A DNA stretch of 64,000 nucleotides from Syntrophaceae bacterium UBA6252. Its GTDB lineage: Bacteria > Desulfobacterota > Syntrophia > Syntrophales > UBA6807. Below, piece by piece: positions 4,469 to 56,191 of the stretch. The DNA is taken from positions 40,940-104,939 of the forward strand of contig DJVQ01000059.1 in assembly GCA_002441265.1 (NCBI GenBank), written 5' to 3'. The translations under genes and the position numbers were made by a program. Numbering within the stretch: the stretch's first letter is position 1; each line of letters opens with the position of its first letter. Under the pieces are notes generated by a model. It was not told the DNA's origin and searched no databases. It saw only the letters and a list, made by a program, of their open reading frames with translations.

Positions 4469-4509
4469 GCCCGGGGCGTGCCCGCCGGGCGGTTCGGGAG
4501 CTCACAAAG

Positions 4510-5310: not shown

Positions 5311-5452
5311 CCCTTGCGGGGATTTCCCCGGACCGCGGCGCCGGCGGCCCCGCTGTTTACGGGGCTGCCAGGCCCGTCACGACGGGCGCAGGAACGGCGT
5401 TCCGGCGGAACCACACCTTGGGGCCGCCGCCGGATCTTTCGTCAGTCGTACG

Positions 5453-6790
5453 TTACCTGCTTGACGTGCGTTTTCTTCTCGTTTTGAACCGGGCCGATCC
5501 GAAAAAGGACTTGCCCGCGGACTGGAAGGGGGATGCGTTCTGAGAGCCGGAGCCCTGTTGCGCCGGCTGCGGTGTGAAGGCTGCGTTCCCCTGGGGGGAG
5601 GATGGACGGCGTCCTTTTTTCACGGACGTTCCGGTCCTTCCGGACCTGATCCTTAGCGAGGGAACGGGAACGGTGTAGTCGAAATCCTCCAGGGTTCTCC
5701 TTTCAATGGTTTCGCCGAGCAGCCTCTCGAGCGTCCAGACGAAGGCCCGGTCCTCGAGGGTCACGAACGTGAAGGCGGTGCCCGTCCTTTCGGCGCGGCC
5801 GGTGCGGCCGATGCGGTGGATGTAAGCGTCGGCGGTGTCGGGCATGTCGTAGTTGATGACGTGCGAGATCCGGGAAACGTCGATGCCCCGGGCGGCGATG
5901 TCGGTGGCTATGAGGACCTGGTACCTGCCGTTGCGGAACCCGTCCAGGGCTTCCTGCCTCCTGTTCTGCGACAGGTCCCCCTGAAGGGAGGCGACAACGA
6001 ACCCGGCCTTTTTCATCCTGCTCGCCACGCGGGTGGCCCGATCCCTGGTCCGGGTAAAGACGAGCACCGATTCGGTCTTCGTCCGTTCCAGAAGTTTCAT
6101 GAGAAGGGCCGTCTTGAGATGGGGCTCGACGGGGTAGATGGCATGGGAAACGGTCGACACCGGGGCGGTCAACCCGACCTGCATGGTGACCGGGTCCTTG
6201 AGGATTTCCCGGGCGAGCTTCTGGATGTCATCGGGCATGGTGGCGGAGAAGAGCAGGGTCTGCCGTTTTGCCGGGATGCCCTTCAGGATCTTCCGGATAT
6301 CGGGGAGGAAGCCCATGTCGAACATGCGGTCCGCCTCGTCCAGGACGAGGACTTCCACGCCCGCCAGGTCGATGGCTTTCTGTCCCATGAGATCGAGGAG
6401 CCGTCCCGGACAGGCCGTGACGATGTCCACGCCATCTTTCATTTTTTTGATCTGGGGCTCCAGTTTCGTGCCCCCGTAGACGGTGGCGCTCCTCAGTTTC
6501 GTTTTTCCGCCGAGAAGGAGGACGGCCTCATGGGTCTGCTCCGCCAGTTCCCGGGTCGGCGCGATGATGAGGGCCCGGATGCGCCTGCGGGGCCCCTCCA
6601 TGAGCCGGTGCAGGATGGGAAGAACGAAAGCGGCCGTCTTTCCCGTTCCCGTCTGGGCAAGTCCCATGAGGTCCTTGCCTTGGAGAATCGAGGGGATGCA
6701 TTGTGACTGGATGGGGGTGGGGTTGGTGTAGCCTGCCTTGAAGATTCCCGATTCGACATCGGGGTGCAACTCAAATGTCTTGAAACTCAT
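5453..6790 (-). CDS. rhlE: DEAD-box ATP-dependent RNA helicase (RhlE-like)
   Basis: It carries the Q-motif/TPIQ, Walker A AQTGTGKTAAF, VLDEADRM (DEAD box), the SAT motif and HRIGRTGR, plus a basic C-terminal tail. Confidence 0.9.
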   Translation of the reverse strand: MSFKTFELHPDVESGIFKAGYTNPTPIQSQCIPSILQGKDLMGLAQTGTGKTAAFVLPILHRLMEGPRRRIRALIIAPTRELAEQTHEAVLLLGGKTKLRSATVYGGTKLEPQIKKMKDGVDIVTACPGRLLDLMGQKAIDLAGVEVLVLDEADRMFDMGFLPDIRKILKGIPAKRQTLLFSATMPDDIQKLAREILKDPVTMQVGLTAPVSTVSHAIYPVEPHLKTALLMKLLERTKTESVLVFTRTRDRATRVASRMKKAGFVVASLQGDLSQNRRQEALDGFRNGRYQVLIATDIAARGIDVSRISHVINYDMPDTADAYIHRIGRTGRAERTGTAFTFVTLEDRAFVWTLERLLGETIERRTLEDFDYTVPVPSLRIRSGRTGTSVKKGRRPSSPQGNAAFTPQPAQQGSGSQNASPFQSAGKSFFGSARFKTRRKRTSSR

Positions 6791-39032: not shown

Positions 39033-39626
39033 TCAAGGGGTCGGCCGTTTTTTCATCCGATTTTTTTTGATCGGGGGAAGGTCCTCCTCCTCGGTGTCGA
39101 GTTCCTCGATGGTGATGTTCTTGTTCGTGTAGATGCACAGATCCGCCGCGATGTCCATGGATTCCCGGACGATCTCCGCCGCCGAGAGGTCGGTGTGGCG
39201 GATGAGGGCCCGCGCCGCCGAAAGGGCGTAGGGACCGCCGGAGCCGATGGCCATGACCTCGTCGTCCGATTCGACGACATCCCCGTTTCCCGAGACGATG
39301 AGGGCGTTTTCACGGCTCACGGCGATCATCAGGGCCTCCAGGTGCCTGAGGACCCGGTCGGTCCGCCAGTCCTTGGCGAGCTCCACCGCCGACCGCAGCA
39401 GGTTCCCGCTGTACAGCTCCAGCTTCTGGTCGAACCGTTCGAAGAGGGTGAAGGCGTCCGCCGTGGCGCCGGCGAACCCCACGATGACGCGGTTGTGATG
39501 GAGCCTCCGGACCTTTTTCGCCCCGTGCTTCAGCACCGTCATGTCCAGGGTCACCTGGCCGTCTCCGGCGACGGCGATCTTTCCCTTGTGGCGGACGGCC
39601 AGGATGGTGGTTCCACGGATCTTCAT
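39033..39626 (-). CDS. hslV: ATP-dependent protease subunit HslV
   Basis: GTTILAV...GDGQVT...[10 protein letters not shown]...GSGG match HslV. It has a 5-residue N-terminal extension and a charged C-terminal tail of about 20 residues. Confidence 0.95.
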
Positions 39627-39627
39627 G

Positions 39628-40566
39628 TCAGGTTTTTTCTCCTTTCGCTTTCGGGTGGGCTTTGTCGTACACTTCCAGGAGGCGCATCACCGTCACCGAC
39701 GTGTACTTCTGTGTGGTGGAAAGGCTCTCATGGCCCAGGAGTTCCTGGATCGTCCTCAGATCGGCGCCGCCGTCCATGAGATGGGTGGCGAAACTGTGCC
39801 GCAGGGCGTGGGGGCCGATTTTCTTCGGGATCCCCCTTTGCGCGAGATGCCTGTCCAGAATCCGGGCCACGCTGCGGGCCGTGAGTCGTTTTCCGAATCG
39901 GTTCAGGAAGAGGGGAGTCCCTTCCCCCGGCGGGGGCGCCGCCGGAACCGCCGTCTCGAGATAGTCCCGCACGGCCTTCCCCGCGGGAGCGCCGAAGGGA
40001 ACGATCCGTTCCTTCCTTCCCTTTCCCCTGACCCGGATGAGGCCGTTTTCGGAATCCAGGTCCTCCCGGTCGAGGCCGGTCAGTTCGCTCACCCGGATGC
40101 CGGCGCCGTAGAGAAGCTCCAGGATGGCCCGGTCGCGGAGGCCCGGCGCGTCCCCTTTCGACTGCCCGTCCAGGAGGTCGAAGGCCTCGTCGACGGTGAG
40201 AAAGACGGGAAGGTGCTTTTCCCCCCTGGGGGAGGAAATCCCCTCCATGGGGTTCCCCCGGATCCACCCCCTCCGGGCCAGATAGCGGAAAAAGGTCCGA
40301 AGGCTCGAGATCTTCCTCGAGATGGAGGACTTCTTTTCCTTCATCCGGTGGAGGAGGGCGAGGTGCGCCCGGATGTCCCCGGCCGAAATACCCGCCAGGG
40401 GGGTCTGCGGATCGCCGGAAGGTTCCCCTTCCGCTTTTCCGGCGGGCCGGAAGAACTGCCTCAGGTCGGAGAGGTAGCCCCGGACCGTGTGCGGGGAAAG
40501 GTTTCTTTCATGGAGAAGATGGTCTTCGAACGCTTTCAGGGCGTCCGCGGCGGTCCGTCTTTCCAT
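39628..40566 (-). CDS. xerC: tyrosine recombinase XerC/XerD family
   Basis: It has the catalytic pattern R..([12 protein letters not shown])...[11 protein letters not shown]...LGH...TQKY (catalytic Tyr). Its position upstream of hslVU is a conserved one. Confidence 0.85.
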
Positions 40567-40603
40567 CGTCAGGGGAGTCCCTCCGTGCGCCCGGTCGTTT
40601 TCT

Positions 40604-40849
40604 TCACTTCTTCGAGAATCTCCGGATGCCGGCGTGGTAGCAGCAGCACGAATTTTCGATGTTGTTGTCGAAAATCCGCGTCTTCCCGTCCCGGAAGGCG
40701 ATCCGGACGTAGGAGACCCCCCCCAGCACGTTCGAATTCATCTCCTCTGTGACGATCCCGAATCCCCATTCGGGATAGCGGAGGTGGGTGACCTGGTCTC
40801 CCGGCTTCAGGTAGAGCCGCCGGATTTCCTCTTTCAGATACGAAGACAT
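40604..40849 (-). CDS. small DUF3553-like protein
   Basis: 81 aa. PGDQVTHLRYPEWGFGIV resembles the DUF3553 core. The assignment is from memory only. Confidence 0.4.
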   Translation of the reverse strand: MSSYLKEEIRRLYLKPGDQVTHLRYPEWGFGIVTEEMNSNVLGGVSYVRIAFRDGKTRIFDNNIENSCCCYHAGIRRFSKK

Positions 40850-41404: not shown

Positions 41405-42791
41405 GGGTTACCTCCTCGTTTCCGGGTCGTTCCCCCCGGAGGGAATGGGCGCAGGCCTCGACGATCCGCACCGAAAGGGTCCGGCCGATCATGGCGGCGT
41501 TCCCGGGAAAGTTGACGATCCGGTTGGATCGGGTCCGTCCCGTCACATCGTTCCCGGAATTTCTGCTGAATCCTTCCACAAGGACCTCCTCCAGCCTGCC
41601 CTCGATAAGGCGGTTCCGTTCCATGGTGTGGTGTTCCTGAAGGGCCTGGAGCTCCGTGAGCCGGGCCCCCTTGACCCGCTCGTCCAGATGGCCGTCGAAC
41701 CGGGACGCCGCCGTTCCCTCCCGTACAGAGTACTTGAAAGAAAAGGCGCCGTCAAACTTTACCGCTTTCATGAGGGCCAGGGTCGCCCGGAAGTCCTCGT
41801 CGGTCTCCCCGGGGAAGCCGACGATGATGTCCGTCGTGACCGCGATGCCGGGGCACACCCGGCGGAGCCGTTCCACCCGGTCCACGTAGGCCGCGGCGGT
41901 GTAACGGCGGTTCATCCGTTCGAGGATCCGGTCGGAGCCGGACTGGACGGGAAGATGGATGTGCCCGCACAGTTTCTTCACGGAGCGGAAACAGTCGATG
42001 AGCTCGTCGGAAAGGTCCTTGGGATGGGACGTGGTGAAACGGATCCGTTCCAGCCCTTCCACGGCGTCGATTTCCCGGAGAAGCCGGGGGAAGGTGTCGC
42101 CGTTTCCGAGCGTCGCGCCGTAGGAGTTCACATTCTGCCCGAGAAGGGTGACCTCCCGCACCCCGCCTTCGGAGAGGGTTTCGATTTCCCGGAGGATGTC
42201 CCCCAGGGGCCGGCTTTCCTCCCTCCCCCGGAGATGGGGAACGACGCAGAAGGCGCAGAAATTGTTGCACCCCTGCATGATGGTCACCCAGGCGGAAACG
42301 CGGCCCGGTCCCGGGGGGGCGACGACGCCGATGGACGGGACGGATTCCCGGAAATCCGTTTCCACGAGGGGTCCTTCCCCGTTCCGGAGCCGTTCCACGA
42401 GGGCGGGAATCCGGTCGATGTTGTGGGTTCCCGCGACGAGATCGACCTGGGGGAACTGTTCGACCAGTTCGCCCTTGAATTTCTGCCCCATGCACCCGCA
42501 CACGGCGATGATGAGGGCGGGGTTCGCCTCCTTCAGGCTCCTGAATCGGCCGAGAAGGCTGAAGACCTTCAGCTCCGCCTTCCTGCGGATGCTGCAGGTG
42601 TTCACGACGATGAGGTCCGCTTTCCTCTCGCGGGACGTTTCCACGTGGCCCGACCGCCGCAGCAGTTCCCCCAGCTGTTCCGAGTCGTGGACGTTCATCT
42701 GGCACCCGAACGTCCGGATATGAAAGTGCAGGGGGGCGCTCAAGGTTTCCTTTTCGTTCCTCTTTTCGGGACCCGCCGTTCTACTTGACAT
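41394..42791 (-). CDS. miaB: tRNA-2-methylthio-N6-dimethylallyladenosine synthase
   Basis: It has the UPF0004 N-domain (IRTFGCQMN), the radical SAM CNNFCAFCVVP motif and a TRAM C-terminus. Confidence 0.9.
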   Translation of the reverse strand: MSSRTAGPEKRNEKETLSAPLHFHIRTFGCQMNVHDSEQLGELLRRSGHVETSRERKADLIVVNTCSIRRKAELKVFSLLGRFRSLKEANPALIIAVCGCMGQKFKGELVEQFPQVDLVAGTHNIDRIPALVERLRNGEGPLVETDFRESVPSIGVVAPPGPGRVSAWVTIMQGCNNFCAFCVVPHLRGREESRPLGDILREIETLSEGGVREVTLLGQNVNSYGATLGNGDTFPRLLREIDAVEGLERIRFTTSHPKDLSDELIDCFRSVKKLCGHIHLPVQSGSDRILERMNRRYTAAAYVDRVERLRRVCPGIAVTTDIIVGFPGETDEDFRATLALMKAVKFDGAFSFKYSVREGTAASRFDGHLDERVKGARLTELQALQEHHTMERNRLIEGRLEEVLVEGFSRNSGNDVTGRTRSNRIVNFPGNAAMIGRTLSVRIVEACAHSLRGERPGNEEVTHAG

Positions 42792-44934
42792 GGCGAAGGG
42801 AAAGCTCCGTGTACGGGTGCTGCTGAAACTTGAACCTCTTCCCCTGGAAGAGTTTCATGCAGGCGTCCACCACGTCCGGATCGTACAGGATCCCCCGGTT
42901 CCTGGAGATCTCGTCCAGTGCCGGCCTGAGGCCCAGGGCGGAACGGTAGGGACGGTGGGACACCATGGCCTCCACCACGTCCGCCACGGCCAGGATCCGC
43001 GCCTCGAGGATGATTTCCTCCCCCATGAGACCCCGGGGATAGCCCGTTCCGTTGTGCCGTTCGTGATGCTGGTAGACGATCTGGGCGACGGGCCACGGGA
43101 ACTCGATGTTCTTCAGAATGTCGTACCCCACCTCGGGGTGGACCTTCATCATGAGAAACTCGATGTCCGTGAGCATGTCCGGCTTGCTCAGGATTTCCGC
43201 GGGCTCGTAGATTTTCCCGATGTCGTGGAGCGTTGCCGCCACGACGAGACCGTCGATCCGGTCCTCGGGAAGCTTCATTTCCTTGGCGATGGCCCGGGCG
43301 AGCTGGGTCACCCGCTGCTGGTGCCCCGCCGTGTAGGGGTCCCTCTTCTCCGTCATCGAGGAAAGGGCGTTCACCGTTTCCTCCAGCCGCTTCTGGAGCC
43401 GCTCGAAGCTTCTGTCCAGTTCGTCCTGGGCCTGCTTGTGGGCCGTGATGTCCCGGACGTAGCCCATGTCGGCGGGCTGGTCGTTGATGGTGATGATGCC
43501 GAAGGCGATTTCCACGTCTTTCTGTGTGCCGTCCCTGCACAGGACCTTCGTTTCGTACAGGGGGAGGACGCTGCCGCCGGCCATGCGCATCTTGTAGCGT
43601 TTTTCGACGAGTCTCCGGTATTCGGGGGTGAATATCTTCAGGAAAGGCATCCCCGTGAGTTCCTCCACGGGATACCCCGTGATGTCCGCCATGGCCCGGT
43701 TCGCGAACTTGAACACCTCTTCCTGGATGATGACCACCCCGTACATGGCCTGTTCGACGACGGCGGAATACTTCTCCTCGCTTTCCCGAAGCTGCCGTTC
43801 CCCCTCCATCCGCGTGGTGATGTCCTCGTAGACGACGACGATCCGCCGTTCCCGGAGGACCCCGCCGACGCGGGCCGCGCTGACGTTGCAGATGATGGGG
43901 GTCCCGTCCTTGGCGAGGCAGGGGAACTCCTCGCTGTGGGTCTCGTCGTGTTCGAGAACGGGGTAGAAATGCTTTCCGATCTTTTCGAAATCCTCGTCGG
44001 AACGATAGAAGATCCTCGTGCTCTTTCCGATCACTTCCTCCGGTTCCCATCCGAAGACGGTTTTCACCGAATCGTTCGCGAAGACGATCTTCCGGTTTTC
44101 GAGGCCGATGACGGCGTGGGGGATGGCGTCCAGGATGGACGACTCCATCTCCTGGATTTCCTCCAGGCGCATCCGCGCCTCCCGTTCCGTTGTCACGTCC
44201 ATCGAGTTGCCCAGAATGGCCCGCCTCCCGAAATAATCGATGGTCGTGACGTTTTCGAGCACCCAGATGATCTTCCCGTCCTTGGTGACGGTCCGGTGCT
44301 CGTAGGGGAAGTGCTTCTCACCCTTCAGCATCCGGACGGCGTTTCTCCGGACCGCGTCGCGGTCGTCGGGATGGACGAGGTGCATGGAATCCATGCCGAT
44401 CAGCTCCTGCTCCGTGTATCCCGAGTGCTCCGACATGTAGGGGTTCACGAACACGAACCTGCCGTCCTGGATGACGTACACCCCCGCCTGGGAACTCCGG
44501 GCTAGCTTGCTGTAGAGTTCCTCCGCCTGCCTCTGGATGCTCCTGTCCCGGACGATGCCGTGGTATCCCTCCACCCTGCCGTTCTTCCTCCGGACCACCA
44601 TGTTCACGGCGCAGTCGATGATCCGGCCGTCCATGCTTTTCAGCCGGACAGGATAGTTTTTCAGGTGTCCCGTCTTTTCGATTTCCTCCTTGAACCGCTC
44701 CCGGTCCGCAGGATCGGCATAGAGCCTCCGCACGTTCAGGGTTCTCAGCTTCTCCGCCGGATATCCGAAAAGTTCGAGGGCCGCCTCGTTGAAATTCACG
44801 ATCCGTCCGCCCCGGGTGGTGATGACCATGGCGTCCCGGGATTCCTCGATGAGCGCCCGGCACTTGGCCTCGCTCTCCCGGAGATACAGGATTTCCTCCA
44901 GGAGCTTTTTTCTCGTCTTGTCTTCGTCTCTCAT
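42781..44934 (-). CDS. multi-PAS sensor HD-GYP phosphodiesterase
   Basis: It has several PAS-like repeats followed by HDIGKI and HHERHNGTGYPRGL (HD-GYP). I prefer ATG 44934 (GAGGA SD); the track start 45000 would overlap the upstream gene. Confidence 0.85.
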   Translation of the reverse strand: MRDEDKTRKKLLEEILYLRESEAKCRALIEESRDAMVITTRGGRIVNFNEAALELFGYPAEKLRTLNVRRLYADPADRERFKEEIEKTGHLKNYPVRLKSMDGRIIDCAVNMVVRRKNGRVEGYHGIVRDRSIQRQAEELYSKLARSSQAGVYVIQDGRFVFVNPYMSEHSGYTEQELIGMDSMHLVHPDDRDAVRRNAVRMLKGEKHFPYEHRTVTKDGKIIWVLENVTTIDYFGRRAILGNSMDVTTEREARMRLEEIQEMESSILDAIPHAVIGLENRKIVFANDSVKTVFGWEPEEVIGKSTRIFYRSDEDFEKIGKHFYPVLEHDETHSEEFPCLAKDGTPIICNVSAARVGGVLRERRIVVVYEDITTRMEGERQLRESEEKYSAVVEQAMYGVVIIQEEVFKFANRAMADITGYPVEELTGMPFLKIFTPEYRRLVEKRYKMRMAGGSVLPLYETKVLCRDGTQKDVEIAFGIITINDQPADMGYVRDITAHKQAQDELDRSFERLQKRLEETVNALSSMTEKRDPYTAGHQQRVTQLARAIAKEMKLPEDRIDGLVVAATLHDIGKIYEPAEILSKPDMLTDIEFLMMKVHPEVGYDILKNIEFPWPVAQIVYQHHERHNGTGYPRGLMGEEIILEARILAVADVVEAMVSHRPYRSALGLRPALDEISRNRGILYDPDVVDACMKLFQGKRFKFQQHPYTELSLRHVK

Positions 44935-44962
44935 TAATTTCCTCGGAGGCTCCCGCCCGCTC

Positions 44963-46414
44963 TCACGCGGGATCGGAGCCGTAGGTTCTGAAACCGTCAC
45001 GGCTTTCCGTTTTCACGGCGTACATGGCCTTGTCCGCGTTCTTCATCAGGAGGTCGAGGTCTCCGCCGTGATCGGGGTACAGGGCGATCCCGACGCTCGT
45101 CGTGACGGAAAGTTCGTGACCCTCTATGTGAAACGGCTTCCGGAAGGCGTGAACGATCTTTTCCGCCATGGCTTCGGCGTCCTTCGGCCTCCGGATTTCC
45201 TGGAGGAGCACGATGAATTCGTCCCCTCCGATGCGGGCGACGACGTCCTCCTGCCGGATGAGTTCCTGAAGGCGCTTCCCCACGGCCTGAAGAAGGAGAT
45301 CCCCCATCTTGTGTCCCAGGGTGTCGTTGATCTCCTTGAACTTGTCCAGGTCGAGGAGAAGAAGGGCGATCCGTTCTCTATATCGGAAAGCCCTGGCCCT
45401 CGCAAGGTTGAACTGTTCGTTGAAGAGGAACCGGTTGGGCACCCCCGTGAGGGGGTCATGGTAGGCGAGCTTCCGGATCTCCTCCTCCGCCTTGACCCTG
45501 TCCGTGATGTCCCGGACGAATCCCATGTCTGCCGGTTTCCCGTCGAAACGGATGACGGTAAAGGAAATCTCGACGTGCGTCGACGTGCCGTCCTGCTTCC
45601 TGACCTTTGTCTCATAAACGGGGGGAGGGGTCTGCCCTCCCGAGAGCCTGAGCTCGTATCTTTCGTGGATCAGGTCGCGCTGGTCCGGGGTGAAGAGGTC
45701 CAGGAAGAGCATTCCCCGCAACGCCTCGACGGGGTAGCCGGAAATTTCCGCCATGGCCGCGTTGGCGTACTTGAAGATGTAATCCTGGATGATGACGACG
45801 CCGTCCCGGGCGCTTTCCACGACGTTCGAATATTTTTCCTCGCTCTCCCTGAGCCGCTCCTCCGCCTCCTTCCGTTCGACGATGCGTCCCAGCCGCTCGG
45901 CGACGGACCGGAAGAGCTTCTGTTCGCTTTCCCTAAACACGGGCCTGCCGTCCCGCTCCGGTTCCTTCACGTAATTCAGCTCGAGAAATCCCACTCCCGC
46001 ACCCCGGACGAAGATGGGCCTGACGAGCTTCCAGGAGGTTTCCCGATAGGTGTCCGTCTTGTATTCCTGCCCGTAAAGGGAAAGGCGGGCGGAGGCGTTT
46101 TCCGGAAATTCCGTAGCCGAAGGAAGCAGGCTCACGGTGCCTCTCAGGATGTTCTCCAGGGAATCCTCGTTTTCAATCAGGTCCGATATGGAATAGAGGC
46201 AGTCCAGTTCGCTGACCCTCTTTTCCAGCTCTACGGTCTTTTCGAGCAGGGCTTTCTCCGCGTTCATGTACTGGGCTTCGAGAATTTCCCACTCGGCCCG
46301 TCTGCGGCGCATTTTCTCCAGCTCGTCCGCGAAATATTGCCGGTCCTTTTCCGGCCGATCGGCTGCCGCCAATTTCTCCTTCCCCCCTTTTTCGATCCTT
46401 CCTTTTTTCTCCAT
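44963..46414 (-). CDS. PAS sensor diguanylate cyclase (GGDEF)
   Basis: It has an N-terminal coiled coil, a sensor region, a PAS domain and then a GGDEF domain with RIGGDEF. An RQED I-site-like motif lies 5 residues upstream. Confidence 0.9.
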   Translation of the reverse strand: MEKKGRIEKGGKEKLAAADRPEKDRQYFADELEKMRRRRAEWEILEAQYMNAEKALLEKTVELEKRVSELDCLYSISDLIENEDSLENILRGTVSLLPSATEFPENASARLSLYGQEYKTDTYRETSWKLVRPIFVRGAGVGFLELNYVKEPERDGRPVFRESEQKLFRSVAERLGRIVERKEAEERLRESEEKYSNVVESARDGVVIIQDYIFKYANAAMAEISGYPVEALRGMLFLDLFTPDQRDLIHERYELRLSGGQTPPPVYETKVRKQDGTSTHVEISFTVIRFDGKPADMGFVRDITDRVKAEEEIRKLAYHDPLTGVPNRFLFNEQFNLARARAFRYRERIALLLLDLDKFKEINDTLGHKMGDLLLQAVGKRLQELIRQEDVVARIGGDEFIVLLQEIRRPKDAEAMAEKIVHAFRKPFHIEGHELSVTTSVGIALYPDHGGDLDLLMKNADKAMYAVKTESRDGFRTYGSDPA

Positions 46415-46632: not shown

Positions 46633-47160
46633 ATGAATCTACGATCGTTCGCCAGAGACTATCGGAGGGAAATGCGATTTTTCCTCCTGTTCCTTCTGAT
46701 CTTTCTCATCGGACAGGGCGTTCACTATGCGACCCGTTCCTGGACCGCGCCGTTTCTCGTCAACGTTCTCAACGCCGGTGCGGGTTCGAAGATCATCAAC
46801 GGGATCACGCCGGGAGAGGAGACCCGGGTGGAGGGGAACGTCATCGTGTCGGGCAACTTCCGCCTCAACATCGCCCAGGGGTGCGAGGGCATCGAGGGGT
46901 TTCTTCTCATCGGCGCGGCGATTCTCGCGTTTACCATGAGCATCCGGGGAAAACTCCTGGGACTTCTCTGGGGGTTTCTCGTCATCTATCTTGCCAACCT
47001 TCTCCGGATCGTCCTTCTGTACTACGTCCTGAAATACCGGCCGTCCCTGTTCGATTTTATGCATATCTTCGTCGGGCAGACCTTCATCATCGTGGTGGGC
47101 ATTCTCTTTTTCGTCTTCTGGGTCGGCAGGTCCGCGCCGGTCGGTGGAAAGAATGGCTGA
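46633..47160 (+). CDS. minimal exosortase/archaeosortase-family protein
   Basis: The start is taken at ATG 46633 (MNLRSF). It is polytopic and carries the three family hallmarks in order: Cys (NIAQGCEGIEGF), Arg (YLANLLRIVLL) and His (FDFMHIFVGQ). Confidence 0.65.
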   Translation: MNLRSFARDYRREMRFFLLFLLIFLIGQGVHYATRSWTAPFLVNVLNAGAGSKIINGITPGEETRVEGNVIVSGNFRLNIAQGCEGIEGFLLIGAAILAFTMSIRGKLLGLLWGFLVIYLANLLRIVLLYYVLKYRPSLFDFMHIFVGQTFIIVVGILFFVFWVGRSAPVGGKNG

Positions 47161-47824
47161 TGGAAAGGCCTTTTCGGTCAAACGGTTCGCCGTCCGTTTC
47201 CTTGCGGCCTTCGCCCTGCTGCTCGCCGTCTTCTATGCGGCGGGGCCGCTCTTCGCGCGCCTTCTCCTTCCGGTCATGGAGGCGGAGATGCGTCTGCTGC
47301 GGCCCGCGTACCGGATCGATCTGACCCTCGCAGGGCGGGACCGGATCGAATACGGGATCGACGTCCCGTTCCCCTGGACCAACCCGTCGGGAAAACGGCT
47401 GGACGGCGTCACGAAGGAAGGACGTCTCCCGGCGAGCAACGTGTCCATCCACCCCATCCTGGTCCTGTCCGTCCTTTTCGCCTGGCCGGCGGCGTCGTGG
47501 AGGAAGACGGGGGCCCTCATCGTCCTGTCCCTTCCCGCTCTCTTTCTGGTCGAACTGCTCGACCTTCCCTTTCACATTTTATGGAAGGCGGAATCGGGAA
47601 TCCCCCTGGAGACCTTTTCAGCGGGAATGATCCGGTTCTGGGGACACGTCCTCAACAACGGCGGAAAACAGTTTCTTTCACTGATGGCCGTCTTTTTCTC
47701 CCTGGGAGCGTTCATGCTGCTCGAAAGGAGGAAAAGGACGGCGGCGCCGGGCGCGCGGGTGGGGAGAAACGACCCGTGTCCCTGCGGAAGCGGCAAGAAG
47801 TTCAAGAACTGCTGCAAGGAGTGA
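47153..47824 (+). CDS. polytopic membrane protein with C-terminal SEC-C zinc-binding motif
   Basis: The ATG at 47153 (or GTG 47144) overlaps the upstream stop. There are about 4 TM helices. The C-terminus NDPCPCGSGKKFKNCCKE matches the SecA C-terminal SEC-C motif. Confidence 0.6.
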   Translation: MADGKAFSVKRFAVRFLAAFALLLAVFYAAGPLFARLLLPVMEAEMRLLRPAYRIDLTLAGRDRIEYGIDVPFPWTNPSGKRLDGVTKEGRLPASNVSIHPILVLSVLFAWPAASWRKTGALIVLSLPALFLVELLDLPFHILWKAESGIPLETFSAGMIRFWGHVLNNGGKQFLSLMAVFFSLGAFMLLERRKRTAAPGARVGRNDPCPCGSGKKFKNCCKE

Positions 47825-47828
47825 AGCC

Positions 47829-48455
47829 ATGTCCGCTCTTGTCGTTCTCGCGATTCTCTTTGCCGTTTTTTCCCTTCTTTCCCTGGTCTCCCTGGCCGTC
47901 GCGATCCGGCGGGGAAGGTGGCTCAGGGGCGCGGGAAAGACGATCCAACTCCTTCTCCTCCTTTCCCTGGCCGCTTTCTTCGGAACGGCGGCCCTCGGCA
48001 TCCGGGGATACGAGGCGTTGACCCGGGAGGACCGGGTCGCCCGGATCGCCGTCCACCCGGCGGGGCCCCAGCGGTTTTCCGTTTCCTTCGAATTTTCCGA
48101 CGGAAGGCATAAGGTCTTCAGCCTTGCCGGCGACGAGCTGTACGTGGACGCCCACGTTCTGAAGTGGACGGCGCCGGGGAACCTCATCGGCCTGCACACC
48201 CTGTACGAGCTGGATCGGGTTGCCGGGAGATACCGGGACATCGAGAAGGAGAAAACGGAACCCCGGACGATCCACGGCCTTTCCGAAAGAACCGGTCCGG
48301 ATCTGTTCGATCTGCGCCTCCGTTATCCTGTTCTCCGCTGGTTTGTCGACGCGCGGTACGGTTCGGCCACCTTCGTCCCCGCGGGAAAGGAGGAGCGGCT
48401 TGTCCTGTGGATTTCCACGACCGGTCTCCTGATCCGGGAGGAAGGGGAGCGCTGA
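47829..48455 (+). CDS. hypothetical membrane protein (two N-terminal TM helices + soluble domain)
   Basis: It starts 4 nt after the upstream stop. I recognise no family. Confidence 0.5.
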   Translation: MSALVVLAILFAVFSLLSLVSLAVAIRRGRWLRGAGKTIQLLLLLSLAAFFGTAALGIRGYEALTREDRVARIAVHPAGPQRFSVSFEFSDGRHKVFSLAGDELYVDAHVLKWTAPGNLIGLHTLYELDRVAGRYRDIEKEKTEPRTIHGLSERTGPDLFDLRLRYPVLRWFVDARYGSATFVPAGKEERLVLWISTTGLLIREEGER

Positions 48456-48480: not shown

Positions 48481-49605
48481 CTACGACCGTTCCTCCGGTG
48501 AATCCGTCGCCGGCGCTTCGCCGGGGTTCCCGCCCCCCGCCATCAGGGGGGACCGATAGAGTTTCTCGCGGGTGACTTCCTCTGAGGGCTGGAACGCCCT
48601 GGAGGGGGGGGTGAACTGCTCCCTCGTGTTCAGGAAATCCTTGATGTACCGTTCCCGGGTGAACATCCCGTCGGCCTTCCCCATCTGAATCGTGCTTTCC
48701 AGCTGGAACAGCTTGTTGTCCCGGATGATCCCCTTGACGGGCTGGGTGTTTCTCAAGATGGAGAGCACGGGAAGCCGGTAGCCGAGCTTTTCCTGGAAGA
48801 CGAGATTCTGGACGATGAGCCATTGCAGGGTGGAAGCGAGCTGGGAGCGCACCTCCTCCTGGGCCTCCAGCGGGAAGGCGTTGCACAGGCGGTAGACGGC
48901 GTCTTCGGGATTGGTCGCGTGCAGGGTGGCGATGACCAGGTTCCCGGCCTCGGCGGCGTTCAGGGTCAGCCGCATGGTCGCCCGTTCCCGGAGTTCTCCC
49001 ACGACGATGACGTCGGGGTCCTCCCGGAGGGCGTCAAGAAGCCCCTGCTCGAACGAGATCACGTGGGTGCCCAGTTCCCGCTGTTCCACGAAGGCGCATT
49101 TGGACTGGAAGCGGAATTCGATGGGGTCCTCCAGGGTGATGATGTGGTCCGTCCGGGTCTGGTTGATCCGTTCCACGAGGGCCGCGATGGTCGTCGTTTT
49201 TCCCGTACCCGTCGCCCCGCAGATGAGGACGAGGCCGGACCGGAGCTCGCAGATTTTCTCGAGGGAGGGGTGGAGGTTGAGATCCTCGAAGGAGGGCGCC
49301 GTCCCGGGAAGAAGGCGGACGGCGATGCTGAGGCCCCTCATGGAATTGAAGACGTTGATCCGGAGCCTCGTGCTGTGAACCGTGGCGGCGAAATCCAGGG
49401 ACTGCCTCGACCGCAGCATTCGAAGCTGGTTGTCGTCGAGAAGGCCCCCCACCAGGCGGTCCACCTCCTCGTGGGTCCAGGTCTCGTCTTCGTCCTTCCG
49501 GATCCTTCCATGGTGGCGGAGCACCGTGGCATGCCCGCCGGCGATGTGGATGTCGGAGACTTCCGATTGAACGGCCGTGCTGATGAGCTTTTCGAATTTT
49601 TTCAT
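48481..49605 (-). CDS. PilT-family type IV pilus retraction-like ATPase (orphan)
   Basis: The start is at MKKFEKL (ATG 49605). It has Walker A GATGTGKTTT, Asp/His boxes (ITLEDPIEF, ATLHA) and a non-conserved-looking C-terminal tail. Confidence 0.85.
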   Translation of the reverse strand: MKKFEKLISTAVQSEVSDIHIAGGHATVLRHHGRIRKDEDETWTHEEVDRLVGGLLDDNQLRMLRSRQSLDFAATVHSTRLRINVFNSMRGLSIAVRLLPGTAPSFEDLNLHPSLEKICELRSGLVLICGATGTGKTTTIAALVERINQTRTDHIITLEDPIEFRFQSKCAFVEQRELGTHVISFEQGLLDALREDPDVIVVGELRERATMRLTLNAAEAGNLVIATLHATNPEDAVYRLCNAFPLEAQEEVRSQLASTLQWLIVQNLVFQEKLGYRLPVLSILRNTQPVKGIIRDNKLFQLESTIQMGKADGMFTRERYIKDFLNTREQFTPPSRAFQPSEEVTREKLYRSPLMAGGGNPGEAPATDSPEERS

Positions 49606-49754
49606 GATCCTCCGCCGCTGGCGTTCGTCCTTTCCTTCACCCGAAGGGAAATTACTGCTTGCGTAACACACAAGTCAGGGTACAATCAATTTCATTTTCC
49701 GGGGCGCGGCGTGCGCCCGGGGTAAGCCCATCCTCACAGACAAGGGGAGGTGAC

Positions 49755-50984
49755 ATGGAATCTTCCGTCCTGTACTTCGCCGCCGGGATCGTGGTCGGGG
49801 CGACGGCCGCCCTGGCCATCGCCTCCGCCCGCTGGCGGGCCATGGAGGAGACGGTTCGGGGCATCCTCGATGAAACGGAACGGCAGGGGGCGGAGGAACG
49901 GGACCGCCTCAGCGGCCAGATGCGGGATGCCTTCAGCGCCCTTTCCCGGGAGGCCCTTTCGAGGAACTCCGGGGATTTTCTCGGAATCGCCGGAGAGACC
50001 CTGTCCAGGCAGGCGGAACGGGGCACGAGGGAACTGGAAGGCAAGAAGGAACTGATCGACCAGGCGCTCCGGCAGATGCGGGACGACCTCCTCCGGGTCC
50101 GGGAACTGATCTCGACCCTTGAAAAGGACAGGGAGCAGAAGTTCGGGGAGCTGAGCGTCCAGGTGCAGCACACGGCGGAGCAGGCGAGGCTTCTCCAGGA
50201 AACGGCCGAGGGGCTCCGGGCTGCGCTCACGAACACGACGGCCCGGGGCCAGTGGGGGGAGCGCATGGCCGAGGACGTCCTTCGGGTTTCCGGCCTCGTC
50301 GAGGGGGTGAACTACATGAAACAGAAAACCCAGGACGCCACGGGGCGGCGGCCCGATTACACGTTTTTCCTCCCCGGGGACCGGAAGGTGCACATGGACG
50401 TCAAGTTTCCCCTGGACAACTACATGCGGTTCATGGACGCGGAAGGGGAGGGCGACCGGGAGCGGTTCCGTACCCAGTTCCTCAGGGATGTCCGCCTGCG
50501 GATCCGGGATGCGGCGGCCCGGGACTACATCCACCCGGAGGAGGGGGCCGTGGACTACCTGATCGTCTTCATCCCCAACGAGCGGGTGTACGCCTTCATC
50601 CATGAGAACGACAGGTCCGCCATGGACGAGGCCCTTCGCCAGCGGGTCGTCCTATGCTCCCCCTTCACGCTGTATGCCGTTCTGTCGGTGATCCGCCAGG
50701 CCGTGGAGAATTTCACCCTGGAAAAGACGGCGACGGAGATCCTCACGGCGTTTTCCCTGTTTTACCGGCAGTGGAAGGGTTTCGCGGGAACGATGGAACG
50801 GATGGGAAAAAAGATCGAGGAGGTCCGCGGCGAGTACGAGTCGCTCGTCACCTCGAGGAAGACCCGGCTGGACCGCTCCCTGCTCCGGATCGAGGAACTG
50901 AGAAGGGAAAAGGGCGTGCCCGCCGGGGAGCCGGAAGAGGATACCATTCCGGAAGGACCGGAGGCAAGGGAAGACGAAAGCTAA
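49755..50984 (+). CDS. rmuC: DNA recombination protein RmuC
   Basis: The start is at MESSVLY (GGGGAGGTG SD). It has an N-terminal TM helix, a long coiled coil and the RmuC nuclease-like C-domain (PDYTFFLPGDRKVHMDVKFP). Confidence 0.85.
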   Translation: MESSVLYFAAGIVVGATAALAIASARWRAMEETVRGILDETERQGAEERDRLSGQMRDAFSALSREALSRNSGDFLGIAGETLSRQAERGTRELEGKKELIDQALRQMRDDLLRVRELISTLEKDREQKFGELSVQVQHTAEQARLLQETAEGLRAALTNTTARGQWGERMAEDVLRVSGLVEGVNYMKQKTQDATGRRPDYTFFLPGDRKVHMDVKFPLDNYMRFMDAEGEGDRERFRTQFLRDVRLRIRDAAARDYIHPEEGAVDYLIVFIPNERVYAFIHENDRSAMDEALRQRVVLCSPFTLYAVLSVIRQAVENFTLEKTATEILTAFSLFYRQWKGFAGTMERMGKKIEEVRGEYESLVTSRKTRLDRSLLRIEELRREKGVPAGEPEEDTIPEGPEAREDES

Positions 50985-51466: not shown

Positions 51467-52011
51467 GAACGTACCCCTTGTTTGGCATATTCGAAGCCCA
51501 CGTCGAGACTTGCCCTGTTGAGCTTCATGAGGGCGGCCTTTTTTCCCTTGGTGATTTCCGCCAGCGCGGCCATGATGGACTCGAGGGAGGTCATCCCCGT
51601 GATGACCGAGAAGGCGCCGAGCATGATCATGTTCAGCGTCTGGTCGCTTCCCGCCTTCTTGGCGAGTTCGTTGGCCGGGATCCGGAAGACCTCGATGTCC
51701 TTCCGGGAGGGGTCCATGTCGACGAGACTGGAATTCAGGAGGATCTTTCCGCCGGGCTTGATGGCGCTCTCGTAGCGGATCATGGACGGCCGGTTCATGA
51801 TGACCCCGAAGTCCGGAGAGGAGGCGACGGGGGAAAAAATCTCCTCGTCCGACACGGCCACGGTGCAGTTGGCCGTTCCTCCCCGCATCTCAGCTCCGTA
51901 GGATGGAAGGTAGGTCACGTGCTTGCCGTCCATCATGGCGGCAACCGCGAAGGCGTACCCCATCATGAGAACGCCCTGGCCTCCGAAACCGGCGAATATC
52001 GTTTTCTTCAT
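51463..52011 (-). CDS. 2-oxoacid:ferredoxin oxidoreductase gamma subunit
   Basis: It has the GFGGQGVLMMG motif and sits within the delta-alpha-beta-gamma operon. Confidence 0.85.
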   Translation of the reverse strand: MKKTIFAGFGGQGVLMMGYAFAVAAMMDGKHVTYLPSYGAEMRGGTANCTVAVSDEEIFSPVASSPDFGVIMNRPSMIRYESAIKPGGKILLNSSLVDMDPSRKDIEVFRIPANELAKKAGSDQTLNMIMLGAFSVITGMTSLESIMAALAEITKGKKAALMKLNRASLDVGFEYAKQGVRS

Positions 52012-52023
52012 GGAAGATTCCTG

Positions 52024-52791
52024 TCAGTTCCCGTCCTGTCCGGGCGTTCCCGTCAGGTCCTTGATCACCTTCAGGGGATAGGTCTTCGTCATCGTCTCCT
52101 CGGCCCATCGGGCCGCTTCCACGGGGCTCAGCTTCCAGTTCGTCGGGCAGGGGGAAAGAACTTCCACGAGGGAAAATCCGAGACCGTCGATCTGGGTCCT
52201 GAAGGCTTTGGTGATGGCCCGCTTCGTCCGGAGAATGTTTTTCGGCGACGTGACGGACGTCCTCTCGATGTACACGGTCCCTTTGGCCACGGCGAGCATT
52301 TCGCTCAGGTCCACCGGGTAGCCGTCCCGCAGGGGAACGCGCCCTCCCGGGGTCGTCGTCGAAAGCTGGCCCGTGACCGTCGTCGGCGCCATCTGCCCGC
52401 CGGTCATGCCGTAGCACCCGTTGTTGACGAAGATGACGGTGATCCGCTCCCCCCGGTTCGCGGCGTGGATCGTTTCGGCCGTCCCGATGGCGGCGATGTC
52501 GCCGTCACCCTGGTAGGAAAAGACGATCCGGTCCGGAAGGACCCGCTTGATTCCCGTGGCCAGCGCCGCGCCCCGGCCGTGAGGCGCCTCTCCCATGTCC
52601 ACGTCGATGTAATCGTAAGCCAGCACAGCGCATCCCGCCGGGGGAACGCCGATGGTCCTCTCCCCGATCCCCAGCTCCTCGATGACCTCCGCCACGAGAC
52701 GGTGAAGAATGCTGTGGCCGCAGCCCGGACAGTAATGGGTGGACGCCTTTTTCAGGTAGCGGGGTCTCTCGAACACCTTCTTTTCCATCAC
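52024..52791 (-). CDS. 2-oxoacid:ferredoxin oxidoreductase beta subunit (TPP-binding)
   Basis: It has YCPGCGHSI and GDGD...NN (the TPP motif). Confidence 0.9.
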   Translation of the reverse strand: MMEKKVFERPRYLKKASTHYCPGCGHSILHRLVAEVIEELGIGERTIGVPPAGCAVLAYDYIDVDMGEAPHGRGAALATGIKRVLPDRIVFSYQGDGDIAAIGTAETIHAANRGERITVIFVNNGCYGMTGGQMAPTTVTGQLSTTTPGGRVPLRDGYPVDLSEMLAVAKGTVYIERTSVTSPKNILRTKRAITKAFRTQIDGLGFSLVEVLSPCPTNWKLSPVEAARWAEETMTKTYPLKVIKDLTGTPGQDGN

Positions 52792-53870
52792 GACTCCTCT
52801 TCCAGGCGCTGGCGGTGATAGAGACTGTTGACGACCTTGGCGATTTCATCAGGCGTGGCGACGCTTCCGCCGGGACGGCCGTAGAAGTGGACGTTGCCCC
52901 GTCCCTCCAGGGACAGCTTCACGTCTTCCACCATCTGGCCGGTGTTCATCTCGAAAACGAGGTACTCCCGGACGGACCGGCTCAACTCGCAAAGGGCTCT
53001 CTTCGGGTAAGGCCACAGGGTGATCGGCCGGAAAAGGCCCACCTTGAGGCCGATTTCCCGGACGCGCTTGATGGCGCCCTTGGCGATCCTCGCCGCCGTG
53101 CCGCAGGCGACCACCACCAGCCGGGCGTCCTCCGTGAGATAGGATTCCGCCCGGGGGATTTCCCGGGTGATGTTGTCGTACTTCCGGGCGAGTTTCCAGT
53201 TCCGTTCCTCTTCCTGGGCGATATCCAGGAGAAGGGACCGGATGTAGCGGCTCGGTCTTCCGGCGGCCCCGCTCAGTCTCCAGGGCTTCGGCGGGAGTTC
53301 GGCCGGGTCCACGGCCTTGTGAAGCACCACGGGCTCCATCATCTGGCCCATCATTCCGTCGGCGAGGATGACCACCGGGGTCCGGTAGCGGTCGGCGTAG
53401 TCGAACGCCTTTCCGGTGAGATCCGCCAGTTCCTGCCCGCCCCCCGGTGCGAGGACGATGGTCCGGTAGTCCCCGTGGCCGCCGCCCCGGGTCGCCTGGA
53501 AGTAATCCCCCTGGGAGGGGGCGATGTTTCCCATGCCCGGACCGCCCCGCATGGTGTTGACGATGACCGCAGGCAGTTCCTGGGCCGCGAGAAAGGAAAT
53601 CCCCTCCTGTTTGAGGCTGATTCCGGGACTCGAGGAACTCGTCATGGCCCGGGCGCCGGCCATGGAGGCCCCGATGACCATGTTGATGGCCGCGATTTCG
53701 CTCTCCGCCTGGATGAAGGTTCCGTCTTCCAGACCGGCCATGGCGGAGGCCATGTATTCCGTAAATTCGTTCTGCGGCGTGATGGGATATCCCGCGTAGA
53801 AACGGCAGCCCGCCCGGATCGCCGATTCGGCGATCACGTGGCTTCCCCGCATCAGGACCTTTTCATTCAC
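52788..53870 (-). CDS. 2-oxoacid:ferredoxin oxidoreductase alpha subunit
   Basis: It has LMRGSHVIAESAIRAGC and YPITPQNE. The start is ambiguous among GTG 53870, ATG 53852 and the track start ATG 53909. Confidence 0.85.
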   Translation of the reverse strand: MNEKVLMRGSHVIAESAIRAGCRFYAGYPITPQNEFTEYMASAMAGLEDGTFIQAESEIAAINMVIGASMAGARAMTSSSSPGISLKQEGISFLAAQELPAVIVNTMRGGPGMGNIAPSQGDYFQATRGGGHGDYRTIVLAPGGGQELADLTGKAFDYADRYRTPVVILADGMMGQMMEPVVLHKAVDPAELPPKPWRLSGAAGRPSRYIRSLLLDIAQEEERNWKLARKYDNITREIPRAESYLTEDARLVVVACGTAARIAKGAIKRVREIGLKVGLFRPITLWPYPKRALCELSRSVREYLVFEMNTGQMVEDVKLSLEGRGNVHFYGRPGGSVATPDEIAKVVNSLYHRQRLEEES

Positions 53871-54105
53871 GATAGACCTCGATGGCGACATCGGGGCAGA
53901 CGATGGCACAGGTCGTGCAACCGGTGCAGCGGCTTTCCTCCCCCTGATTTTTCCCGTCCAGGAATTCGACGGGATAATACCCTTTCTGATTCAGCGTACC
54001 CGAAATGCCGATCGACCCGGTGGGGCACACGGAGATGCACAGATAACAGCCCTTGCAGAACTCCCTGTCGACGGTGATCCTTCCCTTTTTCGCTTTTTTC
54101 GTCAT
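53863..54105 (-). CDS. 2-oxoacid:ferredoxin oxidoreductase delta subunit (2x[4Fe-4S] ferredoxin)
   Basis: It has CKGCYLCISVCP and CTGCTTCAIVCP. Confidence 0.8.
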   Translation of the reverse strand: MTKKAKKGRITVDREFCKGCYLCISVCPTGSIGISGTLNQKGYYPVEFLDGKNQGEESRCTGCTTCAIVCPDVAIEVYRE

Positions 54106-54349
54106 GGAAATGCGATCCGCCCTGTTTCCTGGGGTTGATGAGTGGTTCCCGAAAGCGTGGGATTACATAGACGGGACGATCGGTTTTGTCAAGGATTTTT
54201 GACGGCTTTGTCGAAAATTCCCATGCCGCGTCGCTTTTCGTCCCCGGTTCCCGGGGAGGGAAGTTCCCCTTTTTCCGTTTTCAACGGGGAGGTTTGCTGG
54301 TACACTTGGACAGATTCCGGGGACCATAAAAAAAGAAAGGGGGCAATCC

Positions 54350-55999
54350 ATGGCCGTCCATCCGCTTGCGGGAAAACCTGTCCCCCCGTCCATGCTGGCC
54401 GACATTGCGAGACTCGTCACGGCCTATTACACGAAAGGACCGGAACCGGGGAACCGGGAGCAGAAAGTGGCCTTCGGCACCTCCGGCCACCGGGGTTCCT
54501 CCCTGCGGGGCAGTTTCAACGAGGCCCACATCCTCGCCATCACCCAGGCGATCTGCGATTTCCGTCTTTCCCGGGGGATCGCGGGTCCCCTGTTCCTCGG
54601 GATGGACACCCACGCCCTTTCCGAACCGAGCCACGCCACGGCCGTGGAGGTTCTCGCGGCCAACAGGGTGGACGTGTTCCTCCAGGAAGGCCCGGGATAC
54701 ACCCCCACCCCCGTCATCTCCCACGCCATTCTGACCCACAACCGGCGGTCCTCCCACAGGGCCGACGGCATCGTCATCACGCCGTCCCACAACCCGCCCG
54801 AGGACGGCGGGTTCAAGTACAACCCCCCGGAAGGGGGACCCGCCCCCGCGGAGACGACGCGGTGGATCGAGGAGCGGGCGAACGGGTTCCTGGAGGCGGG
54901 AAACGGCGGGGTGAAGCGGATCCCGTATGAAAAGGCCCTCCGGGGGAGCAACGTCCATCGGCACGATTACGTCGGGCCCTACGTGAAGGATCTCGAGAAC
55001 GTTCTCGACATGGAAGCCGTCCGGTCTTCGGGGGTCCGGGTGGCCGCCGATCCCATGGGCGGATCCACCCTTCCGTTCTGGGAGCCCATCGCCGGGACGT
55101 ACGGCCTCGACATCACCGTTGTCAACGATGCCGTCGATCCCACATTCCGCTTCATGACCGTCGACCATGACGGGAAGATCCGGATGGACTGCTCCTCCCC
55201 CTGGGCCATGGCGCGGCTCATCGATCTTGCCGGGAAATACGACATCGCCTTCGGGAACGATCCCGACGGCGACCGGCACGGCATCGTGTGCCGCCACAGC
55301 GGGCTCATGAACCCGAACCACTATCTGGCCGTCGCTATCTGGTACCTGTTCCGGCACCGTCCCCTCTGGGGAAGGGAGGTGGCCGTGGGGAAGACCCTGG
55401 TCAGCAGTTCCATGATCGACCGGGTCGCTTCCCGTCTCGGCCGGAAACTGGTGGAGGTTCCCGTGGGGTTCAAATGGTTCGTGGACGACCTCCTCGCTGG
55501 CCGCTTCGGCTTTTCCGGGGAGGAGAGCGCCGGGGCCTCCTTCCTTCGCAGGGACGGGACGGTCTGGACCACGGACAAGGACGGGATTCTCATGGCGCTC
55601 CTGGCCGCGGAGATTCTCGCCGCCACGGGCCGCGACCCCGGGGAGCACTACGCCGAACTGGTGAAAAACTTCGGAGACCCCCTGTACGAGCGGCAGGACC
55701 GTCCCGCCACGGCCGCGGAACGGGAACTCCTCTCGAGCCTGTCCCCGGGGGACGTCACCGAGGACACCCTCGCCGGGGAACCGATCCTCGCCCGGCTCAC
55801 GAATGCCCCGGGAAACGGCGCCTCCATCGGGGGATTGAAGGTCGTTTCGGAAAACGGCTGGTTCGCCGCCCGCCCGTCGGGAACGGAGGACATCTACAAG
55901 ATCTACGCGGAGAGCTTCCGGGGGGAGGGGCACCTCAGGAACATCCAGGAGGAGGCCGGAAAGATCATCGGGAACGCGCTGCGGAAAGGGGGCTCGTGA
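54350..55999 (+). CDS. pgm: phosphoglucomutase, alpha-D-glucose phosphate-specific
   Basis: 549 aa with the active-site [10 protein letters not shown] and the Mg loop [10 protein letters not shown]. Confidence 0.9.
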
Positions 56000-56191
56000 C
56001 CGGCGCCGCCGATCCCGTCCCCAGCGCCGCGGCGGGGTGCCGGGAGGCGGCCGGACGGTGAAGACGAGGGGCCGGGCTTTTTCGCGAAGTCCCTGCCGGC
56101 CCTTGACGGAAGCCGGGGACCTGTGATAGGAAGCACCTCTCGCAGTCGGAAAATCCCTTCTTTTACGGGGGGATGGTCCGAAAGCGTCCAT

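Follow-up and report, generated by a model that had tools for sequence, protein, structure and literature searches.

To our knowledge, the proteins with SecA-like metal-binding domains (MBDs; SEC-C, Pfam PF02810) that have been studied so far, namely SecA, YecA/AscA and YchJ, are all soluble; in these, a long and flexible linker joins the MBD to an ATPase or a chaperone. SecB and ribosomes are known ligands of the SecA and AscA/YecA MBDs, and such domains have been proposed to form a toolkit that recruits the proteins fused to them to the Sec machinery (10.1101/2020.07.21.215244; PMC8076867). Here we describe a membrane protein with a domain of this kind, encoded at 47153..47824 (+) in a 64,000-nucleotide stretch of DNA from Syntrophaceae bacterium UBA6252 (GCA_002441265.1, contig DJVQ01000059.1, positions 40,940 to 104,939 of the forward strand; this whole stretch is the window below). 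The protein, hereafter the partner, lies directly downstream of a short exosortase. It resembles the soluble MBD proteins in the CxCxSx6CC pattern and its flanking residues, and in having a tail that is extremely C-terminal, predicted cytoplasmic and basic, but it differs from them in that the MBD sits on an integral membrane protein, follows a linker of ~14 residues and belongs to an exosortase system. We know of no structure, no characterised partner protein and no account of cargo selection, at the translocon or elsewhere, for exosortases or archaeosortases. No paper linking exosortases with SEC-C was found in the literature searched, nor were relevant papers on XrtH or XrtM, and sequence sources label the partner proteins as hypothetical or as SEC-C domain proteins. 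What we regard as new here is an exosortase-associated membrane protein that carries a SecA-like MBD, its reading as a pseudo-enzyme being an added insight with moderate support.

The partner open reading frame (ORF) encodes 223 amino acids, with four transmembrane (TM) segments and the C-terminal SEC-C tail, between an ATG at 47153 and a TGA at 47822-47824; an alternative start is present (GTG 47144), and homologues begin at the ATG. Its C-terminus has the sequence ...ERRKRTAAPGARVGRNDPCPCGSGKKFKNCCKE, with ...RVGRNDPCPCGSGKKFKNCCKE as the final residues. An earlier note, made from this DNA alone, had read the C-terminus as a SEC-C motif of the SecA type, and several comparisons confirm that the tail is a bona fide SecA-type MBD. 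The protein ends in GRNDPCPCGSGKKFKNCC, which lies above the Pfam SEC-C cut-off: amino acids 205-221 (RNDPCPCGSGKKFKNCC; 47765..47815, +) score 38 bits on PF02810 (E 1.5e-9), for which the gathering score is 20.4. The predicted metal ligands, C209-P-C211-G-S213-GKKFKN-C220-C221, fit CxCxSx6C[CH], the ligand skeleton defined for SecA-like MBDs (10.1101/2020.07.21.215244). Translation of the window in all six frames contains this pattern a single time, versus 0.03 occurrences expected per window in shuffled sequences. The tail is identical to the E. coli SecA MBD (1SX0) at 17/19 positions, to the H. influenzae SecA peptide of the SecB co-crystal 1OZB at 15/19, with all basic residues kept, and to the C-terminal MBD of YchJ (chain 9l6b_C) at 20/21. 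Several NCBIfam models of the YchJ/YecA type match the same 20-30 tail residues and nothing beyond them, and a Pfam scan of 15 partner-family members at E <= 1 yielded nothing except SEC-C. By analogy with these proteins, the tail is a putative binder of zinc or iron, and of SecB, ribosomes or lipids. Amino acids 204-220 also resemble the first 18 residues of NCBIfam PRK12318, a methionyl aminopeptidase (E 0.019 for the window protein; E 0.0023 for the best match among partner-family members). This match is to a ribosome-associated enzyme family that bears the same motif at its N-terminus, and it may favour, as circumstantial evidence, a ribosome-docking role of SEC-C modules.

Conservation was assessed in the window, in metagenome contigs and in ten loci from Thermodesulfobacteriota metagenome-assembled genomes (MAGs), for which one genome per species was scanned. 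All ten genome loci come from MAGs of Syntrophales, Desulfobacterales and their relatives, and the nearest, with 59% identity, is in a Syntrophales MAG. The tail is kept in 19/19 partners of the compared loci. The earlier note had reasoned that a sporadic Cys-rich tail would be missing from orthologues; every homologue down to 26-28% identity keeps GRNDPCPCGSGKK[FY]KxCC, with the sole exception of a frameshifted copy of 156 amino acids (P0010, from an NCBI/JGI MAG). Among 59 tailed representatives, which reach down to ~25% body identity, the sequence G-R-N-D-P-C-P-C-G-S-G-K-K-[YF]-K-x-C-C is conserved, and its non-ligand positions (R in 49, N in 53, D in 41, P in 50, P in 55, G in 57, G in 57, K in 45, K in 56, Y/F in 58 and K in 57) are conserved as strongly as the metal ligands. 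The motif ends 1-7 residues before the stop codon in all of these tails with one exception, and all 59 carry the CC variant and never CH. The notion that the tail is a sporadic Cys-rich sequence without function, or an artefact of annotation, has as its sole argument the absence of the tail from distant family members; it was rejected on the Pfam score, the chance expectation of 0.03 and the conservation across 19 loci and 59 representatives, and we consider it next to impossible.

The gene upstream of the partner (46633..47160, +; ATG 46633, with the mechanical ORF extending from TTG 46549) encodes a 175-amino-acid protein that had been called sortase-like on first reading and that proves to be an XrtM-like short exosortase, the candidate catalytic subunit of the pair. 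It matches Pfam Exosortase_EpsH (E 6.3e-10) and passes the exo_archaeo signature (58 bits against a cut-off of 23). The best-scoring NCBIfam family is XrtM (TIGR04300), at 106.9 bits and below its cut-off of 125, and XrtH (TIGR04177) scores 65.8 bits, below its cut-off of 86; a protein 93% identical to this exosortase is labelled XrtM by JGI. Because Cys84, Arg125 and His144 are invariant among 80 relatives, the enzyme looks active. The partner ATG and the exosortase stop overlap by 8 nt, and the partner gene likewise overlaps a directly preceding exosortase gene of 175-188 amino acids in metagenome contigs whose partners are 80%, 64%, 31% and 28% identical. Hidden Markov model (HMM) searches of the loci placed an XrtM-like exosortase directly upstream of the partner in 18/18 tailed loci having upstream DNA (the window, L001-L007 and L009-L018). 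On this gene arrangement, the partner is shown to be translationally coupled to the exosortase and to be the dedicated partner of that enzyme. Exosortase-partner fusions of the 'Rosetta stone' kind numbered zero among 392 collected proteins, and a scan of the operon for promoters and terminators gave sites no more numerous than in shuffled controls.

The four TM helices expected for the partner are evident both as hydrophobic segments (approximately amino acids 14-40, 98-115, 121-143 and 172-190) and as helices in an AlphaFold2 model built with 137 family sequences (predicted local distance difference test score, pLDDT, 93.7; predicted template modelling score, pTM, 0.86). The model comprises a helix at 9-49, three strands within 54-93, helices at 94-110, 116-147 and 155-196, and a small knuckle. 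TM1 (amino acids 14-40; 47192..47272, +), assigned by hydropathy, Lys/Arg bias and the modelled helix 9-49, is preceded by a predicted cytoplasmic N-terminus and followed by a predicted periplasmic loop of ~57 amino acids (47273..47443, +; charge 9+/8-), which is modelled as a three-stranded beta-sheet (strands 54-60, 64-76 and 82-93). Hydropathy and Lys/Arg bias place TM2 (98-115), a basic cytoplasmic loop (RKTG) and TM3 (121-143) at 47444..47581 (+), and hydropathy and alignment place TM4 (172-190; 47666..47722, +) after an invariant GG[RK] at amino acids 170-172. The family-invariant residues are W111-P112, D137 and G170-G171-R172. In the window protein, the Lys/Arg charge is 3+/1- at the N-terminus, 2+/0- in the five-residue TM2-TM3 loop and 10+/3- in the C-terminal tail. 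Across 15 homologues these three regions are net positive, and charges balance in loop 1 (57 residues) and loop 3 (28 residues). Since four TM segments and a positive-inside bias recur across these homologues, both termini are predicted to be cytoplasmic, and the SEC-C knob would lie on the cytoplasmic face ~14 residues past TM4, rather than in the periplasm, a placement that would have told against the link to cytoplasmic machinery raised in the earlier note. The linker between TM4 and the motif is short (~10-25 residues) across the tailed representatives.

Profile comparison suggests that the membrane body of the partner is itself related to the enzyme beside it. When the partner family (137 sequences) was aligned by hhalign to a set of 80 short exosortases, the probability was 80.4% and the E-value 1.3e-5 over 114 collinear columns that span TM1, the loop, TM2 and TM3. 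The real score was 40.5, versus ~15 when either alignment was reversed and at most 33.6 in 30 block shuffles. A local profile-profile run with another alignment carried the similarity to TM4 at a probability of 50-56%. In addition, three partners match the XrtH model at ~1e-3, and one exosortase matches the partner HMM. The AlphaFold2 models of the partner and of the exosortase (pLDDT 87.8 for the latter) show the same order of elements: a long helix, three strands, a short helix and two long helices. At the positions aligned to the catalytic residues, the partner has Ala94 for Cys84, Asp137 for Arg125 (Asp in 134/137 members) and Asn168 for His144. These findings support, and do not prove, that the partner body is probably a distant, catalytically dead exosortase paralogue. 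The polytopic membrane protein that the earlier note placed next to a sortase-like enzyme is thus retained as such, and what changes is that it is no unrelated neighbour but a dedicated partner, probably derived as a dead paralogue of the enzyme. A lone weak match of the partner, to positions 12-111 of XrtT (E 0.11), is a single hint that it might correspond to the missing N-terminal half of the long eight-TM exosortases.

Compared with XrtM (TIGR04300) and XrtH (TIGR04177), the partner shares the collinear profile similarity, an A-[FW]-P after TM2, a G-Q before TM4 and the predicted order of secondary-structure elements, whereas it lacks the catalytic Cys, Arg and His and has a longer beta-loop, its own invariant residues and the SEC-C tail. 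Another described protein that it resembles is the exosortase H-associated membrane protein (XrtH_assoc; NF041730, PF28117), also a small polytopic membrane protein beside a short exosortase. Some partner-family members make weak collinear matches to that model (P0018 with E 3.5e-6; P0009 with residues 12-184 against 1-169 of 184). However, the enzyme paired with the window partner is XrtM-like and not XrtH, and the XrtH_assoc model has 184 positions, so that matches to tailed members end before the tail. Membership of the window protein in XrtH_assoc was rejected, there being no match at E <= 1. Because only 7/137 members of the partner family match this model at E <= 0.01, with P0018 the best at 26.9 bits (cut-off 35) and the window protein not among them, the partner family is, by these profiles, a sister of the exosortase H-associated membrane protein that for the most part has no model of its own.

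A profile of the partner membrane body without the tail was used for an exhaustive search against 1.84 billion representatives, which returned 664 proteins at E <= 1e-3, 264 of them reaching E <= 1e-10. A word-index profile search with the same tail-less body had given tailed relatives alone among the matches listed, and it was the exhaustive search that exposed a tail-less majority. The tail is present in 38/147 newly listed family representatives examined, mostly among the closest matches. In a rough neighbor-joining tree, all tails fall within one half of the family, and P0192 carries a decayed tail that has lost the second Cys (CPSGS). Two tail-less members, P0131 and P0176, were checked, and the gene of each likewise overlaps that of a short exosortase before it. 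Given that it is clade-specific and has been repeatedly lost or has decayed within a larger tail-less family, the SEC-C tail appears to be an accessory module that is not essential to the core system. In locus L021, the tail-less P0176 and a more divergent short exosortase (4466-5603, +) adjoin a genuine PEP-CTERM protein (5963-6370, -; 26.3 bits against a cut-off of 16), from which it would follow that the 'short exosortase plus partner' design also serves PEP-CTERM cargo.

Candidate cargo of the tailed pairs invites comparison with the IPTL-CTERM / exosortase H system (TIGR04174). As in that system, proteins with a VPT[MF]xxWG motif, a TM segment and a basic cluster are encoded 0.2-5 kb from the pair, in loci L010 and L004; unlike in that system, the enzyme scores below the XrtH cut-off and the window has no tagged protein. 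The putative cargo in L004 (13539-14837, +) is a 432-amino-acid protein; its gene lies 5 kb from the pair, its C-terminus is VPTMNEWGLILTSILLCLGGVYLMRRKR, and its IPTL_CTERM score of 25.5 bits exceeds the cut-off of 20.5. The putative cargo in L010 (6945-7547, -) is a DUF11-repeat protein encoded convergently, directly downstream of the partner gene; it ends in VPTFTQWGIIGFLLLLTVSGVWLTRRK, comprising the tag VPTFTQWG, a TM segment and RRK, and was assigned by motif alone. On the limited evidence of these two loci, an IPTL-CTERM-like tag ([IV]PTxxxWG followed by a TM segment and a basic tail) is likely to be the substrate signal.

We propose, with a probability of roughly 0.45, that the partner is an exosortase subunit without catalytic activity and that its SecA-like tail serves to dock the sorting complex to the ribosome, SecA or SecB, the docking being a step that we infer from the analogy with known MBDs. 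The partner would be the non-catalytic member of a two-gene exosortase module, forming a heterodimer of a dead and an active paralogue that processes Sec-exported proteins with IPTL-CTERM-like tags. The cytoplasmic MBD would dock this complex on a conserved MBD-binding surface, be it that of the ribosome, of the SecA core or, where present, of SecB. Exosortase cargo is exported by Sec, with the C-terminal anchor leaving both the ribosome and SecYEG after all other segments; a tether at the export site would therefore be a sensible means of cargo capture, by which the anchor, as it emerges last from SecYEG, could be passed straight to the exosortase. Because many relatives have no tail, the tail would tune the efficiency or localisation of the complex and would not be needed for catalysis. 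The connection of the module with Sec, SecB or the ribosome that was raised in the earlier note thus appears reasonable by analogy. The more committed version, in which a SecA-type MBD has been grafted on a pseudo-exosortase and physically tethers the exosortase complex to the ribosome or the Sec translocon, we hold to be doubtful.

Several observations weigh against this docking proposal. Within the 64-kb window there is no protein with a C-terminal motif, a TM segment and a basic tail. The tail is missing from approximately three-quarters of the listed family representatives, and the ~15 state changes that the rough tree implies point to repeated loss, or possibly gain; this patchiness indicates that it is dispensable in many lineages. 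The profile probability of 80% on which the paralogy rests is short of decisive, and Foldseek searches of both AlphaFold2 models against the PDB, with no match at E <= 0.001, suggest that neither fold has a solved relative. The motif is also not exclusively Sec-related, since YchJ, which carries it, has been assigned a role in redox-sensing transcription (PMC13377102). Finally, alpha-, beta- and gamma-proteobacteria are the only groups in which SecB is common (PMC4257090; PMC8076867), and because the tailed loci belong to Thermodesulfobacteriota, SecB is the least likely of the proposed docking targets in this phylum.

The SEC-C knob could instead be a membrane-surface anchor or structural element that binds anionic phospholipids or exosortase loops and makes no contact with Sec, a small, basic, metal-stabilised fold then setting the orientation or stability of the complex. 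The C-terminus of SecA binds lipid, the linker to TM4 is short and the tail has been repeatedly lost. Moreover, tail-less relatives often end in plain Lys/Arg-rich sequence, which fits a generic membrane-surface or lipid-binding role equally well and suggests that the conserved requirement is a basic cytoplasmic end. A generic basic anchor, however, needs no near-identity to SecA at non-ligand positions, and the positions conserved here are those of the surface that contacts SecB in 1OZB (PMC4257090). For these reasons we judge a purely anchoring role unlikely.

In another explanation, the tail would specifically recruit SecB-bound preproteins, with SecB delivering tagged cargo to the partner in place of SecA or alongside it. 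The 15/19 identity to the peptide crystallised on SecB, with every basic residue retained, agrees with this idea, as does the binding of the AscA MBD to SecB with a dissociation constant (KD) of ~150 nM (10.1101/2020.07.21.215244). We nevertheless find it improbable, as all ten genome loci are from Thermodesulfobacteriota and no secB was seen in the window or the loci, where 10-64 kb was visible per genome. Somewhat less credence still is due to a metal or redox sensor, in which zinc versus iron occupancy, or oxidation of the four Cys residues, would switch the partner and hence exosortase activity in response to the iron or redox status of these anaerobes. Iron binding in vivo is on record for SecA-like MBDs, which have been proposed as oxidation-state sensors (10.1101/613315), YchJ with the same motif is reported to sense reactive oxygen species (PMC13377102), and the all-Cys variant is universal among the 59 tails; yet the switch in YchJ is a separate residue, Cys149, and not the zinc site (PMC13377102), and no redox-related gene recurs in the neighbourhood of the pair from locus to locus.

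If the proposed docking is correct, the tether would be the first direct mechanistic coupling of Sec export with C-terminal sorting of the exosortase type, and, should the paralogy also hold, short exosortases would function as heterodimers in which one paralogue is active and the other dead. The module offers an obligate, translationally coupled partner that resembles an inactive copy of the enzyme, and the presence on it of a well-studied docking domain, the MBD of SecA, provides a concrete hypothesis for how sorting could be coupled to export. Relatives in which the tail is absent or decayed are natural controls for this hypothesis, and the partner adds a membrane-embedded example to the proposed use of SecA-like MBDs as a toolkit.

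The surroundings of the operon vary among lineages. Four long ORFs in the window, at 39541-40752 (+), 51478-52818 (+), 52815-54077 (+) and 54281-56191 (-), have no Pfam match at E <= 1e-5, and some of them may be spurious opposite-strand ORFs in a sequence of 62% GC. Two genes for cyclic di-GMP signalling lie upstream of the exosortase operon in divergent orientation, at a distance of ~220 bp from where it starts, one for a triple-PAS protein with an HD(-GYP-type) domain (42781-45000, -) and one for a PAS-GGDEF diguanylate cyclase (44963-46414, -). The GGDEF gene also accompanies the operon in L001-L003, which are 80% identical, and not in more distant loci. On the other side, 4 nt after the partner stop, begins a gene (47829..48455, +) for a 208-amino-acid protein that carries two TM segments at its N-terminus as well as a soluble domain of ~140 amino acids, has no Pfam or NCBIfam match and is probably in the same operon as the pair. 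Kept only in a Syntrophales-like clade (L001-3, L006/7 and L009), it was rejected as part of the conserved core and is regarded as a lineage-specific neighbour. Farther downstream lie genes for a PilT/PilU-family type IV pilus ATPase (48481-49671, -; 327 bits, narrowly exceeding the cut-off of 319) and for a member of the RmuC family (49659-50984, +), and the synteny of these two genes is preserved in L001-3, L006/7 and L009.

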